Shown: piece after piece, positions 13,423 through 37,725 of the stretch | Numbering within the stretch: position 1 is the first letter of the stretch | How the letters are laid out: each line of letters starts with the position of its first letter | Source: Pseudomonadota bacterium | GTDB lineage: Bacteria; Pseudomonadota; Alphaproteobacteria; Paracaedibacterales; CAITNM01 | Assembly (NCBI GenBank): GCA_018062345.1 | Contig: JAGOSL010000002.1 | Location: forward strand, 32,541-96,540 | Reading direction: 5' to 3' | Length of the DNA stretch: 64,000 nt | Made by a program: the position numbers and the translations under genes | The notes under the pieces: generated by a model | What the model saw: only the letters and a program-made list of their open reading frames with translations | Databases searched by the model: none | Told to the model about the DNA's origin: nothing

Positions 13423-14768
13423 CCACCTATTGAATTTAGTGCGTCATACAGCTCGTCTATAGAATTAAAGACAGTTGTCATGTTGTTGAATCGTTGAAGG
13501 CGTTCTATCATTTGTGCCATTTGAGGGATAATTTCGACAGTACTACTTTCAAGGGCGCCGACAGCTACTTTTCCGGCAGAATTTTCACCTATGTAACAAT
13601 AGGTGACATCTCCTGAGCCTTTGTTGTATGTTGTGTTTCCGATAGTTTCTTTACTGTTATTTTGCAGATAAAGTCCCTTTTCTAGCATTTCTAATCCATC
13701 TGGGTTATTGAAGCACCCTACTACTAAACGTCCTATGAGTTCAGATTTTCCATTATCAAAGTTTCCGTAAATATTGCCATTCTCATCAAAATTTAATGTC
13801 TTAAAGGCGCCAGAGGTTTGCCCATTAACTTGAACTTGCAATCGAGACTGCCCGCCGTTTATGACTATTACGCCGTCTGGTTGACCAACTGTTCCAAGGT
13901 TCATGGATGGAGTGATTGATGCGCCCCCTGGACATGTAATGTTTAAATCTGGTGGGGTAGCATTGCCATTAAATGAGAGAGGATATTTATTTGTGGGATC
14001 AAAATTTATGATAACCGGATTTGCTGGAACTGAATTTGAGGGGTCTCCAGCGCTGTATGCTCCATTTACTGTTGAGTTTGCGGGGGCTTGGATGGTTAAC
14101 GACCATGATTGCCCTGTGCCACTACTGTCTGCCCAATCAGCATTGCGTGTGAAAACATAATTTAGGGTGCGTGGAGTTCCTGAAGAATCATATACTGAGA
14201 CAGCCCTTGTAACGCTGCTTCCAATGTTACCTGAGAGACCACATCTGAACGTAATTTCTGAAGTTTGTATGGCGCTTGAGCTTAGGTTAGAGCTTGAGCA
14301 GTCCAGAACACTTAATGATGTGTTTGACAAATTTGTTGGTAGCACTCCATTTACAGCAGGAGCATACAGCAACTGCATGCCAAAATGATTTTGTATTTTA
14401 TTTTCTGCGTTGTAACCAAATGTTCCGACACGAGTAAAATACTGATTACCATTTGCATCTTGTACAGGGAAAAAAGAGGCATCTCCTAATAGTGACAAAT
14501 GAGTATCTACTTGAGAACTGACAGGTGCGCCAGCACCTCGAATATGATAGTGGACATTATTTTCCAAAATTCCAGCAGATTCTCCGCCCATATAAGAGTA
14601 ATAGACATTTTGAAATGTATGACGAGATCGTCCTGCAACGGTTGCTTCGGCAGCTAAGTTATGGGCCGTATCGTTAGTGGATTTTGCTGTATTGTTTAAG
14701 GCAATAGCGTCTCTATTTAGAGCGCCTGCTAAGGTTGAATTATCAAATCTTGGTACTAAATCTGACAT
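13419..14768 (-). CDS. flgE: Divergent flagellar hook protein FlgE
   Basis: THLSLLGDASFFPVQDANGNQYFTRVGTF, FKTLNFDENGNIYGNFDNG, FNNPDGLE, GALESSTV hook motifs; follows flgD. Confidence 0.8.
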   Translation of the reverse strand: MSDLVPRFDNSTLAGALNRDAIALNNTAKSTNDTAHNLAAEATVAGRSRHTFQNVYYSYMGGESAGILENNVHYHIRGAGAPVSSQVDTHLSLLGDASFFPVQDANGNQYFTRVGTFGYNAENKIQNHFGMQLLYAPAVNGVLPTNLSNTSLSVLDCSSSNLSSSAIQTSEITFRCGLSGNIGSSVTRAVSVYDSSGTPRTLNYVFTRNADWADSSGTGQSWSLTIQAPANSTVNGAYSAGDPSNSVPANPVIINFDPTNKYPLSFNGNATPPDLNITCPGGASITPSMNLGTVGQPDGVIVINGGQSRLQVQVNGQTSGAFKTLNFDENGNIYGNFDNGKSELIGRLVVGCFNNPDGLEMLEKGLYLQNNSKETIGNTTYNKGSGDVTYCYIGENSAGKVAVGALESSTVEIIPQMAQMIERLQRFNNMTTVFNSIDELYDALNSIGG

Positions 14769-15571
14769 TAGGCAACCTCATCTACGCTTTTTGCAAGTAC
14801 GGAGGGGTCTCCACTGTAAATGGAAAGCATCTGTCTGATTGGTTGATTTCCGCTGTAGTAAACAGGTTTCCCATTAGCTGGGTCAGGACGAACTTCCTGT
14901 ATTCTTTTTGGAATATAAGATGGAATGATTGCGCTTTTTCCTTCTTCGTCTGTAATGGTGGCATGAACAATGTATTGACCATGTTTTGCAACCTCTCCAT
15001 CTTTGTCCAAACCATCCCAGTTTATATACTGAATGCCTGGTTGACTGTTTGATGTCCATTCTCTTGTTATCAACCCTTTTTCATCAATTAAAGCAACTTG
15101 TACGATGCCTTCTTGTTCAGGAATATCAATAGCAAGGTCAGTGGTTTTACCTTTAAATTCAATTCTGTGATCTTTAACTAAGGCTTCTCTTCCTACGTTT
15201 CTGGACATTGATACAAATAAATTGTGCAGACCTATTTTATTGCCATCTTCTTGCAGGGCGACGCGTTGCATGTTGCCTGTTGCATTGAGCATATCTAGCA
15301 TGCTTCTTAACATGTCTGTAGTATTGAATTTATCATCACCCAGTGGGACCCGCCCCTTTACGTAGGCCAACACCATTTCTTGAATACCTCTGACGGTTTT
15401 TTTTATATCTTTTTCTAGTTGGCTACTTTCTCCGTTTCTGAGCGTATCAATGTCAGGACTTTTTACCAAATCGTCAAAGGGAGTCCCGCTAGATTTTGTT
15501 TCTTTTGGATGATAATTTTCTAATTTGATATTAGAGCGAAATTCCTGAGATCCTATGACATTAGAGGGCAT
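14768..15571 (-). CDS. flgD: Divergent flagellar hook-capping protein FlgD
   Basis: FlgD Ig domain VQVALIDEKG...YINWDGLDKDGEVAKHGQY; located between fliK-like and flgE. Confidence 0.75.
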   Translation of the reverse strand: MPSNVIGSQEFRSNIKLENYHPKETKSSGTPFDDLVKSPDIDTLRNGESSQLEKDIKKTVRGIQEMVLAYVKGRVPLGDDKFNTTDMLRSMLDMLNATGNMQRVALQEDGNKIGLHNLFVSMSRNVGREALVKDHRIEFKGKTTDLAIDIPEQEGIVQVALIDEKGLITREWTSNSQPGIQYINWDGLDKDGEVAKHGQYIVHATITDEEGKSAIIPSYIPKRIQEVRPDPANGKPVYYSGNQPIRQMLSIYSGDPSVLAKSVDEVA

Positions 15572-15581
15572 TTTATGTTCC

Positions 15582-16580
15582 TTACATGGTTGTTGATTTT
15601 GTTAAGCTTGTGCATTTGTTGAATTGCATTCTAGAAGAGTCGATGGTGTATCCTTCTTGAGTGATGATGTTCATAAATTCTTCACGGTGTTGGGCAAAAA
15701 GAGCAACGATTTGATCATTTGATCCTGTAAACATTACGCGAATTTTACCTTTATTTGCGTCATTAGGGTTTGCTTCTTTGCGATCGAAGCGCATGTGAAT
15801 ATCTACAATTCCTTCAGGGTGCTTGAGCGGGATCATGATATATGGATGTTGAGCATTTAGTTGCTGTTTGAATTTTTCTTTTACGTCTCGTAATGCTTCA
15901 ATTTCTTCCTTTTTTAATAGTTGAGCATTCTCATTTGGTGCTGTAGGGCTTACCTTTATAGATGATTTTGTTAGTTTTTGGTTTGCTTCACCAAATTTTT
16001 GCGAGTTACTTTCTTTATTATTATCTTGGTGCTGAGTGCGCTCATGAACTGCGCCAACTAATCCCATTGAAATTTGTTCGATGTCTGTTGGATTTGCGCT
16101 AGTTGATAGAATAAGGGGGTCTATTGTTGTGCGGGGTCCATAACCCTTATCTATTGTATATTTTTGTGGTTGAATCGATGGGGCTGAGCTTAAAACTTCT
16201 ATAAGTTTGGGGGTATCAGTAGGGAGAATTCTTCCGATCTTGTCTAAAGGCAGTATTGATTCAAGTTTTATCTCTGGCTGTTTGGCGTGATGATCGCTGG
16301 TTGTTTTTTGTAATGGGGCATTTTCTGGCCCAAAACGTTGATTTTGCATTGTGGCAGTTACTTCTGTCGCTATAAGAAAATTTTCTTGAAGATGTGAAGA
16401 TGAGCTGGCCAGAAACGATGTAAAATCCTGATGAATTGGAGCACGAAGACCCTCCCCTTTTATTTGGGAGGAAAATTTTGCATCAATCTGAGTTTGAGGT
16501 ACTACAATTTCTTTTTCATTTTGATTAATGCGCGCAAGTGTTTGAGCTTTCGCTCCATGAAGCGATAGTGATTGCACCAT
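15582..16580 (-). CDS. fliK: Flagellar hook-length control protein FliK-like
   Basis: Low-complexity Pro/Gln/Ser/Thr N-region and a C-terminal T3S4-like domain (IPLKHPEGIVDIHMRF...IRVMFTG...HREEFMNIITQEG); fliK-flgD-flgE order. Confidence 0.7.
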   Translation of the reverse strand: MVQSLSLHGAKAQTLARINQNEKEIVVPQTQIDAKFSSQIKGEGLRAPIHQDFTSFLASSSSHLQENFLIATEVTATMQNQRFGPENAPLQKTTSDHHAKQPEIKLESILPLDKIGRILPTDTPKLIEVLSSAPSIQPQKYTIDKGYGPRTTIDPLILSTSANPTDIEQISMGLVGAVHERTQHQDNNKESNSQKFGEANQKLTKSSIKVSPTAPNENAQLLKKEEIEALRDVKEKFKQQLNAQHPYIMIPLKHPEGIVDIHMRFDRKEANPNDANKGKIRVMFTGSNDQIVALFAQHREEFMNIITQEGYTIDSSRMQFNKCTSLTKSTTM

Positions 16581-18617: not shown

Positions 18618-18637
18618 ACCTATCAATTTTTATAGGT
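18618..18637. promoter_or_regulatory. Lux-box-like 20-bp palindrome, copy 1
   Basis: ACCTATCAATTTTTATAGGT (ACCTAT-N8-ATAGGT) in the luxR-infA divergent gap; same length and ACCT...AGGT ends as the canonical lux box. Confidence 0.65.
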
Positions 18638-18788
18638 AGTAAAGTATTTATTGGTCTTGTTGAGATATTAGATGTGAAAATGTAGCAAAAAAACATTTTC
18701 TTATAGATATTTAAGCTCCAAATGCATTAATTTGTTGATTTTTTTTAAATATGTTGTACTTATAAATATTATCTTTAAACTTTATACT

Positions 18789-19007
18789 ATGGCAAAAGAA
18801 GACCTTATTGAATTTACGGGAGTTGTTGCTGAACTTCTTCCTAACGCAACATTTCGAGTAAAACTAGACAATGACCACATTATTTTGGCTCATACATCTG
18901 GAAAAATGAGAAAGAATAGAATACGGGTGTTATTAGGGGATAAGGTTACAGTTGAAATGACGCCCTATGACTTAACAAAAGGGCGCATTACATTTCGTCA
19001 AAAATAA
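18789..19007 (+). CDS. infA: Translation initiation factor IF-1
   Basis: [24 protein letters not shown]...[17 protein letters not shown]; true start is the ATG at 18789. Confidence 0.98.
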
Positions 19008-35419: not shown

Positions 35420-36886
35420 ATGAAAAATCTTGTTCAAGGACAAACAGGGCTTTGGGAGGTTGTTATTGGGCTTGAAGTTCATGCCCAAGTGACTTCAAAC
35501 GCAAAATTATTTTCTGGAGCGGCTACTGCTTTTGGAGCAGATCCAAATACCCAGGTTGCTTTTTTAGATGCTGGGATGCCGGGAATGTTGCCTGTTTTAA
35601 ATAAAGTTTGTGTTGATCAGGCTATAAAAACAGGTTTAGGCATGAATTCAAACATCAATAAAATATCAATTTTTGATAGAAAAAATTATTTTTATCCAGA
35701 TCTTCCTTTGGGCTATCAGATTTCTCAGCTTTATTATCCAATTGTTTCTGGCGGGTATATAGATATTGATTTAGAAAACAATGAGACCAAGCGGATAAAT
35801 GTGACGCGTTTGCACTTAGAGCAAGATGCGGGGAAAAGTACACATGATTTGCACCCGAATTTTTCATATATCGATTTCAATCGAGCAGGCGTTGCTTTAA
35901 TGGAAATTGTTTCCGAACCAGAGTTGCGTTCAGCTCAAGAAGCAATGGCCTATGTAAAAAAGCTGCGTTCAATTTTGCGTTATCTTGGAACCTGCGATGG
36001 CAATATGGAGCAGGGAAGTTTACGTGTTGATGCAAACGTTTCTTTGCACAAACTTGATACACCTTTTGGTACTCGCGCAGAAATTAAAAACGTAAATTCT
36101 GTACGATTTTTGGGCCAGGCAATTGAGTACGAAATTTCAAGACAACTAGATATTATTGAAAATGGCGGGGAAGTTGTACAAGAAACGCGTTTATTTGATC
36201 CAACGAAAGGCGTGACCAGATCAATGCGCAGCAAAGAAGATGCAATGGATTATAGGTATTTTCCTGATCCAGATTTGCGTCCACTAGTGCTTGAGGAATC
36301 ACGCATTGAAATTATTCGTCAATCTATGCCTGAGTTACCTGATGCAAAGCGAGACCGTTTTATAAAAGAATTTTCTCTAACCGAATATGATGCAAACGTT
36401 TTGGTTGCTGAAAAAGAAGTTGCTGATTTTTACGAACAGATAGTTGGTTATGCAAAAGGTCAGGGTGCCGCAAAGCTTATTGCAAACTGGTTGATTGTTG
36501 AGGTGTTTGGAGCGATGAATCGAGAAGGAAAATCGATTGATGATTTGCCTTTCATTCCAGAGTATTTAGCAAATTTAATTGATCTAATTATTGATGGCAC
36601 TATTTCTGGAAAAATTGCTAAGGATGTTTTTGCCAAAATGTGGGAAACAGGCAAGGCTCCAGCTGTATTAATTGATGAGCTTGGTCTAAAACAGGTTTCT
36701 GATACAAGCGTAATTGAAAAAACAGTGGATGAAGTTTTGGCAGCAAACGCTGCTCAGGTTGAGCAGTATAGAGCAGGAAAACAACAGGTTTTTGGATTTT
36801 TAGTTGGGCAAGTTATGAAGGCTTTGCAAGGAAAAGCAAATCCTGGTGTAGCAAATGAAATATTGAAGAAAAAATTGAGCCAATAG
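35420..36886 (+). CDS. gatB: Asp/Glu-tRNA amidotransferase subunit B
   Basis: [36 protein letters not shown]. Confidence 0.98.
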
Positions 36887-36901
36887 AGGAAGAAAAGCGT
36901 C

Positions 36902-36921
36902 ACCTATAAAATATGATAGGT
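36902..36921. promoter_or_regulatory. Lux-box-like 20-bp palindrome, copy 2
   Basis: ACCTATAAAATATGATAGGT, identical at 18 of 20 positions to the reverse complement of copy 1 (ACCTATAAAAATTGATAGGT). Confidence 0.65.
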
Positions 36922-37102
36922 TGTGCAGAGCCTTATTATTAAGTTATATGAATGAGAAATTTGGTCTTTGTTTTTAATTTTATAATTATTAATTTTCATC
37001 TTTTAAGTGCGAAATTTTGCTGAAAAAGCTGGATGGATGAGACTGAATGGTTCAGAGCTAGTTTGCAATTGTGCCGAATTGCACGGTTGAATGTAGCTTT
37101 GA

Positions 37103-37160
37103 TAAGAGTATCTCTAGTTTGAATATATCCTCTTAATTGAATCAGGTAGAGATACTCTTA
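37103..37160. repeat. Long inverted repeat/hairpin in the gatB-hpf intergenic region
   Basis: Perfect 14-bp arms TAAGAGTATCTCTA / TAGAGATACTCTTA around a 30-nt spacer; no adjacent U tract. Confidence 0.8.
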
Positions 37161-37167
37161 ATATGAA

Positions 37168-37725
37168 CTAACTGGTTTTCTTAGGATCTATCCAGCCAAT
37201 ATTGCCATCTTTTCTTCTGTATACAATGTTTAAGCCATCATGCGCAGCATTTTTAAACATGACAACTGGTGCATCTGATAAATCTAGCTTCATAACAGCT
37301 TCGCTTACGGTTAAATGATGAATATCATGAGGCATTTCTGCGATAATTACAGGAGTATCTGTGCCTGTATCTTCTGCTTCTTGGTTAACGACAAAATAAG
37401 ATGCTGAAACATTTTTTTCCTCACTTTGGCGTTTGCGATCACGTAGTCTAGAGCGATATTTTTTAACTTGTTTTTCTAACTTTGCTAGCGCATCACTGAC
37501 GCTTTTGTAAGCATCACTATCGCGACCCTTACAGTGTATAATGAGGTTTTTACTTACGTGCACCGCAAAATCAGTAATGAATTCATGGTGATCTTTGCTA
37601 AGATGAACATGAGATTCATGAATTTCACCGACATATTTATCTAAAAGTCCTTTTAATTCAGTTTGAATAAAAGTATTTAAGCTATCCCCAACATCTATTT
37701 GGTGGCCTGCGACATGAATTGACAT
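37168..37725 (-). CDS. hpf: Ribosome hibernation promoting factor (long HPF/RaiA)
   Basis: IHVAGHQIDVGDSL, LEKQVKKYRSRL, C-terminal LTVSEAVMKLDL...NIVYRRKDGNIGWIDP. Confidence 0.95.
   Translation of the reverse strand: MSIHVAGHQIDVGDSLNTFIQTELKGLLDKYVGEIHESHVHLSKDHHEFITDFAVHVSKNLIIHCKGRDSDAYKSVSDALAKLEKQVKKYRSRLRDRKRQSEEKNVSASYFVVNQEAEDTGTDTPVIIAEMPHDIHHLTVSEAVMKLDLSDAPVVMFKNAAHDGLNIVYRRKDGNIGWIDPKKTS

Follow-up and report, generated by a model that had tools for sequence, protein, structure and literature searches.

What reads a palindromic element that lies upstream of a luxR gene and recurs at a second, distant site in the same stretch of a bacterial genome, and which genes would it control? 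The element, ACCTAT-N8-ATAGGT, occurs as ACCTATCAATTTTTATAGGT and as ACCTATAAAATATGATAGGT in the window (the whole 64,000-nt stretch analyzed, C20:32541-96540 of the source genome G000, which comprises 1.46 Mb in 31 contigs at 38.5% G+C). A sequence-only reading had described the two copies as lux-box-like dyads, placed both between genes and found no others in the window, and these observations are borne out. The coordinates of both dyads are correct, and ACCTATAAAAATTGATAGGT, the reverse complement of ACCTATCAATTTTTATAGGT, agrees with ACCTATAAAATATGATAGGT at 18 of 20 positions. The first copy, in the luxR–infA spacer, lies about 215–216 nt from the luxR start (18402; 216 bp in the earlier account) and 152 bp from the infA ATG (18789), whereas the second lies in the gatB–hpf spacer (Table 1). 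A scan allowing up to one mismatch returned exactly these two sites, and in 100 dinucleotide-preserving shuffles of the window the mean was 0.06 copies, with none of the shuffles reaching two. The 18618 20-mer was also found unchanged in four independent metagenome contigs.

Extending the search to the whole G000 genome gave eight exact copies at a spacing of 8, against zero or one at each other spacing from 0 to 20; together with the window shuffles, this spacing control rules out a chance origin of the dyad. All eight copies are intergenic by a crude gene call with 90% genome coverage, as are the best 15 matches in G000 to a symmetrised weight matrix built from the 18 exact sites of four genomes (consensus cTACCTAT(C/A)A-N4-T(G/T)ATAGGTAg). 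Positions C3, T4, A17 and G18 are present in 18 of the 18 exact sites, which gives the dyad the CT-N12-AG core described for lux, las and rhl boxes (PMC4074388). The 20-bp length, strict spacing and core all agree with the proposed likeness to a lux box, and the combination of strict spacing and invariant arms points to a dimeric DNA-binding protein as the reader. What does not survive is the idea of a minimal, two-site regulon, since G000 holds roughly 12–20 credible sites, the eight exact copies among them.

Table 1. Sites, genes and predicted type-A targets in the source genome. Locations without a prefix are window positions; the prefixes C6 and C17 denote contigs outside the window.
Feature	Location	Strand	Remarks
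Window ("W-type") LuxR, 239 aa	17683..18402	-	Pfam Autoind_bind 75.5 bits, GerE 49.2 bits
Type-A lux-type box ACCTATCAATTTTTATAGGT	18618..18637	.	luxR–infA divergent spacer; one of eight exact genome copies
infA (IF-1)	18789..19007	+	Pfam eIF-1a; divergent neighbour of luxR
gatB	35420..36886	+	ORF and translation; upstream flank of the 36902 box; 3' end conserved across the genus
Type-A lux-type box ACCTATAAAATATGATAGGT	36902..36921	.	begins 16 nt past the gatB stop (36886); convergent gatB–hpf gap
Structured non-coding gap	36922..37167	+	downstream of the 36902 box
hpf (ribosome hibernation factor)	37168..37725	-	Pfam Ribosomal_S30AE and S30AE_C; convergent with gatB
Quorum-sensing cluster of G000	C6:1053-6199		outside the window; in order: membrane protein, tandem boxes, luxI, 176-aa protein, GIY-YIG protein, repeat region, type-B box, short LuxR, full LuxR
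Tandem boxes	C6:1510 and C6:1541		upstream of luxI
luxI synthase, 205 aa	C6:1807-2424		PF00765, 91 bits
176-aa protein	C6:2529-3059		kept in the luxI cluster of three species
Type-B box	C6:4719		before the short-LuxR/LuxR operon
Short LuxR, 173 aa	C6:4802-5323		AHL-binding domain only, no helix-turn-helix
Full-length luxI-linked LuxR, 235 aa	C6:5492-6199
LqsR-like response regulator (predicted target)			box 52 nt before the start codon; G007 counterpart 51 nt
Amidinotransferase gene (predicted target)			first gene of the neighbouring LqsS-like kinase locus; 9 nt between box and ATG
LonB-like protease (predicted target)			box 64 nt upstream
PLD-like protein (predicted target)			box upstream; recurs in G007
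Sel1-repeat protein (predicted target)			box 75 nt; Sel1/rsmA spacer
Several small proteins (predicted targets)			signal-peptide-like N-termini, by-eye call
GerE regulator, unknown sensor domain (predicted target)	C17:192253-193098

The window itself offers one obvious candidate reader. The closest solved relative of the window LuxR is RhlR (E 9e-14), and the gene is flanked by a birA-like gene and infA, with luxI not adjacent. It had been taken for a solo, but the genome holds a LuxI synthase and two further Autoind_bind genes on contig C6. Because luxI is present elsewhere in the genome, the window LuxR is an unlinked paralogue of the luxI-linked LuxR rather than a solo. In a tree of these proteins the window-type and luxI-linked LuxRs form sister clades within the genus, with the sole full-length LuxR of a further genome, G025, as outgroup. 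At the luxI locus, the C6:1510 box lies 277 nt from the luxI start codon, and the second dyad of the tandem, ACCTGTATAATTGTGCAGGT, starts 11 nt past that box and is of a variant form, ACCTGT-N8-ACAGGT (type B, as opposed to type A for ACCTAT-N8-ATAGGT). Distances of 170–290 nt between box and start codon, as seen for luxR and luxI, are unusually long.

Comparison of 31 genomes of the same order ties the element to the presence of this circuitry. Exact copies with A/T-rich spacers are confined to G000 (8), G007 (7; the MAG CANKYV01, "Alphaproteobacteria bacterium ZE05-15may19-24"), G005 (2) and G025 (1), all of which have strong LuxR matches (E about 1e-21) and a LuxI. When ACCTRT-N8-AYAGGT was counted with up to one mismatch against a reversed-pattern control, there were 24 matches versus 6 in G000, 26 versus 5 in G007 and 20 versus 13 in G005, but 7 versus 10 in G003 and 4 versus 10 in G011, neither of which has luxI. 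Same-genus genomes without luxI retain only a weak Autoind_bind-like gene, and their matches do not outnumber those of the reversed-pattern control; none has more than one exact copy, and five share a single 20-mer whose spacer is not A/T-only. Boxes precede luxI in G000, G005, G007, G025 and G016, which represent two families of the order, and the half-sites of these boxes vary symmetrically (ACCTAT...ATAGGT, AACTAT...ATAGGT, AACTGT...ACAGGT). Exact ACCTAT-N8-ATAGGT was not found in the luxI-bearing genomes G016, G020 and G027, and G016 has one-mismatch copies upstream of two of its luxI genes. The element therefore shows two marks of a lux-type box: co-occurrence with a LuxR-type receptor and a place upstream of luxI. 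The source organism is widespread in lake, freshwater and wastewater metagenomes.

We thus have good confidence in a model in which ACCTAT-N8-ATAGGT serves as the operator, a lux-type box, of an AHL quorum-sensing circuit with a LuxR-family reader. A receptor dimer would occupy the two half-sites of the box, and the putative circuit would consist of the LuxI synthase, the short LuxR without a helix-turn-helix, the full-length LuxR linked to luxI and the unlinked window LuxR. A LuxI/LuxR pair acting through a lux-type box is a well-known kind of system; the points of interest here are the box variant, the possible pair of paralogues with two box dialects and the putative wiring of AHL signalling over an Lqs-type module.

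The closest parallel is the lux system of Vibrio fischeri, whose box is ACCTGTAGGATCGTACAGGT (PMC4444344). Both boxes are 20-bp dyads with the arm frame ACCT.T-N8-A.AGGT, and the V. fischeri arms are identical to the type-B arms of G000 (ACCTGT...ACAGGT). The window boxes differ from it in having A/T for G/C at arm positions 5 and 16 only, and in their A/T-only spacer. In both systems a box stands upstream of the synthase gene, as in an autoinduction loop, and the receptor combines Autoind_bind and GerE domains. Unlike in V. fischeri, however, luxR and luxI are here unlinked, the genome has three receptor paralogues, and the box lies about 250–290 nt before luxI rather than immediately at the promoter.

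If the reader is a LuxR-family protein, which of the paralogues is it? The two box types are not evenly distributed. Type B, often in the form ACCTGTATAAT, is concentrated in the luxI cluster: it precedes the short-LuxR/LuxR operon by 63 nt in G000 and 58 nt in G007, with a two-mismatch copy 17 nt before the called start of the operon in G005, and in G005 and G007 it also stands before the conserved 176-aa gene. Differences extend to the recognition helices. That of the window type, ATITFHLKNIRKKL, resembles those of the G025 LuxR, ATVIFHLKNLRKKL, and of RhlR, the closest solved homologue, STVNFHHKNIQKKF, whereas the luxI-linked clade, ST(V/A)AFHL(D/A/S)(S/N)(V/I)R(K/Q)KL, has D, A or S where they have K. 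G025 has a single full-length LuxR and boxes of type A only. Since G025 combines type-A boxes only with the same lysine, we lean, with modest confidence, toward an assignment within the LuxR-operator explanation in which the window LuxR reads ACCTAT and the luxI-linked LuxR reads ACCTGT. Were the window LuxR to read type A, the earlier proposal that it binds its own box would be vindicated.

A different assignment within the same explanation is possible but doubtful, namely that the luxI-linked LuxR (C6:5492-6199) reads the type-A boxes, alone or together with the window LuxR, the latter being in that case a circuit target instead of the reader of its own box. Both proteins have the FHL..RKKL helix frame and are closely related paralogues (about 60% identity, estimated by eye), and in G025 and G016 type-A boxes lie beside luxI in genomes that have no window-type orthologue. 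The two box types also substitute for one another between species: the aligned luxI box of G000 and G005 is type A, that of G007 type B. The dialects could thus be interchangeable, which weakens the idea of one paralogue for one dialect. Against this assignment stand the helix changes that set the luxI-linked clade apart from the window type and G025 (K to D, A or S; T or I to A), at positions that presumably align with base-contacting residues of the TraR–DNA structure. The operon of the luxI-linked LuxR, moreover, has type-B and not type-A boxes in three species.

It is improbable that the reader is a regulator outside the LuxR family that has been inherited along with the quorum-sensing genes, for which the candidates would be the LqsR-like response regulator, the 176-aa cluster protein and the GerE regulator with an unknown sensor domain (Table 1). 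Within the genus the LqsR-like gene is confined to G000 and G007, precisely the two genomes richest in exact boxes, and the 176-aa protein is retained in three species. Nonetheless, G005, G025 and G016 keep boxes at luxR or luxI but lack the LqsR-like gene, which is therefore a predicted target and not the binder; nor was the 176-aa protein found at the luxI loci of G025 and G016, which rejects it as a necessary binder of type A. The lack of box enrichment in same-genus genomes that have no luxI and only a weak Autoind_bind-like gene argues in the same direction, as does the near-identity of the box arms to a verified LuxR site.

Very improbable is a role for the dyad as an RNA-level hairpin (in termination, processing or stability) or as a dispersed REP/MITE repeat: although several copies lie 12–30 nt past a stop codon (gatB, an HgmA-like gene, C6:1053-1481) and AGnTTTTT follows many of them, the hairpin is weak (-5 kcal/mol, 6 bp, 8-nt loop), a terminator scanner calls none at either window site, roughly half of the sites lie between divergent genes with nothing to terminate, the arm sequence is conserved beyond mere pairing, the element is missing from relatives without luxI, and homology among copies stops at the core. 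The 40-nt flanks on each side of the eight copies have a mean identity of 0.32 (maximum 0.40), and 32% is, by our own estimate, about what is expected of unrelated sequence of such base composition; the dyad is therefore no part of a larger repeat, and the common dispersed repeat that the sequence-only reading had named as a possible refutation is not seen here.

With a LuxR-type reader as the favored explanation, what would the two window boxes do? At 18618, the sequence-only reading had offered autoregulation of luxR or control of infA and had proposed looking for the box upstream of orthologous luxR genes. That comparison finds a box before window luxR orthologues in three species, including G005 (with an identical 20-mer) and G007. 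In both of these genomes the divergent neighbour of the box–luxR unit is a RelA/SpoT-HD-like gene and not infA, and thus the box travels with luxR. Its conservation favors control of luxR, possibly autoregulation, so the first half of the proposal gains support, whereas infA is probably not a conserved target because the divergent neighbour differs in G005 and G007. In G000, infA has its own sigma-70-like match at 18744-18772. In the operator model, the 18618 box would place the window luxR under quorum-sensing control, most simply by autoregulation. On the luxR strand a sigma-70-like match lies upstream of the box (18795-18768), and the box could also act as a roadblock, which would make the autoregulation negative.

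Beside the birA-like gene and luxR, at 14768-16580, lie ORFs that by eye resemble the flagellar hook genes flgD and fliK. No Pfam family was found for the fliK-like ORF, and no lux-type box was found upstream of these ORFs.

The second window site presents a different setting. Like the site at C22:15282, it lies between convergent genes, where no promoter is needed, a point against the operator model. The gap between the gatB stop (36886) and the hpf stop (37168) measures 281 nt, and the part of it from 36922 to 37167 contains no ORF of at least 50 aa. The segment 36950-37165 folds with z = -4.4 into three helices, and an Rfam scan of the window returned tRNAs only. The 3' hairpin of the gap (about 37098-37156) is kept in G007; there a T-run comes next, and then a 177-aa ORF with a signal-peptide-like N-terminus, an ORF absent from G000. 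G007 also has a degenerate counterpart of the box, CCCTATACAAAATGATAGGT, 25 nt past the gatB stop, and no box was found after gatB in G005. Across the genus the gatB–hpf gap is between 70 and about 1,100 nt long, and its ORFs differ (177 aa in G007 and G011; 264 aa in G005). One metatranscriptome contig, from a sparse set without direction, covers 36841-36991 and thus reads from inside gatB through the 36902 box; it fits both a start downstream of the box and the lack of one. From its sequence, 36922-37167 is either a candidate small transcript driven by the box or the relic leader of a gene lost from G000. The 36902 box would correspondingly act as the promoter element for a small transcript or be the promoter left over from the deleted gene.

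Beyond the window, the predicted type-A regulon of G000 comprises luxI, the window luxR and the targets listed in Table 1. Sites shared with G007 at orthologous genes are those at the lqsR-like and PLD-like genes, in the Sel1/rsmA spacer and downstream of both the HgmA-like gene and gatB; most of the G000 sites other than the luxR box have counterparts at orthologous genes of the sister species. At the lqsR-like, Sel1 and LonB-like genes and at the PLD gene of G007, the box lies 50–75 nt from the start codon, a distance compatible with the -42.5 geometry of class II promoters, and weak TAnnnT elements occur 22–29 nt past the box at sites of this kind. Boxes so placed would fit class-II activation of the LuxR type.

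Type-A boxes also bracket the locus of the amidinotransferase, the LqsS-like kinase and the LqsR-like regulator (C17:182461-186322 of G000). The amidinotransferase box at C17:182461 is a perfect palindrome, ACCTATCATTTTTGATAGGT; it is not conserved in G007, where a half-site alone is left.

A broader and more tentative model would join these elements into two recently diverged AHL receptors within one reduced genome. The luxI-linked LuxR would read ACCTGT-N8-ACAGGT in the synthase cluster and the window LuxR ACCTAT-N8-ATAGGT at a dispersed regulon, the split being set by one or two helix residues (K versus D, A or S), and the Lqs-type kinase/regulator module and the amidinotransferase would come under AHL control via the window LuxR. 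If correct, this two-dialect reading would give an uncultured lineage a signalling hierarchy with two tiers and two chemistries. The arrangement recalls the las and rhl systems of Pseudomonas aeruginosa (LasR/RhlR), which likewise have the CT-N12-AG core, several LuxR paralogues, a multigene regulon and one signalling system apparently above another; moreover, the FH.KNI.KK recognition helix is common to RhlR and the window LuxR. The half-site sequences differ, however, and the lower tier here would be an Lqs-type kinase/response-regulator pair with an adjacent amidinotransferase gene rather than a second LuxI/LuxR pair.

Precedents also exist for the individual receptors. QscR of P. aeruginosa is an unlinked LuxR "orphan", and TrlR and TraS of Agrobacterium are truncated anti-activators. 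The window LuxR is similar to QscR in being an unlinked paralogue in a genome with its own LuxI, and the short AHL-binding-domain-only LuxR, encoded beside a full-length LuxR, is similar to TrlR and TraS. Unlike members of this class, the window LuxR is preceded by a conserved box of its own. In G000, G005, G007 and G025 alike, a full-length LuxR has next to it a short LuxR that lacks the helix-turn-helix and resembles the truncated LuxR anti-activators.

For Paracaedibacter and Holosporales, our search of the literature yielded no specific work on AHL quorum sensing. The analysis provides a sequence-defined, predicted quorum-sensing regulon for an uncultured alphaproteobacterium with a 1.46-Mb genome and corrects the reading of the window LuxR as a solo. 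Among the predicted targets are an Lqs-type signalling module and proteins that, from their Sel1-repeat, PLD-like or signal-peptide-like features, are likely to be secreted or to take part in host interaction. The paralogous receptors and box dialects also offer a natural pair for the study of how LuxR DNA specificity diverges.

Several further observations concern the same gene families and boxes. The LuxR family is markedly expanded in the 1.5–1.6-Mb genomes, with 11 Autoind_bind matches in G005 and 6 in G007, and the expansion in G005 includes tandem pairs at G005:C14:32398-33537. The expanded clades differ in their recognition helices (…FHLKNIR(G/E)KL, …FHLGNIRSKL and …FHL(T/A)NIRKKL). Three identical type-B boxes, ACCTGTATAATCTACCAGGT, occur in G000 at C6:32706, C31:6726 and C21:7356, each followed by a T-run; two of the three lie in near-identical duplicated segments, 30 nt past a 109-aa ORF, and these boxes may be part of a repeated or mobile module with a quorum-sensing-controlled promoter. 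Between the GIY-YIG gene and the short LuxR gene of the luxI cluster, C6:3976-4572 is a tandem DNA repeat whose minus strand reads MMELNPDLRRGDDLALCRP.SGNYE units. Finally, a third type-A-like dyad, AACTATCACTATTTATAGCT (C6:1759-1778 in G000; L025:5628-5647 in G007), ends 28 nt before the luxI ATG; G007 retains it, and G005 does so in part. Its position is too near the luxI start codon for activation, and so it may instead be a repressor or roadblock site on luxI.
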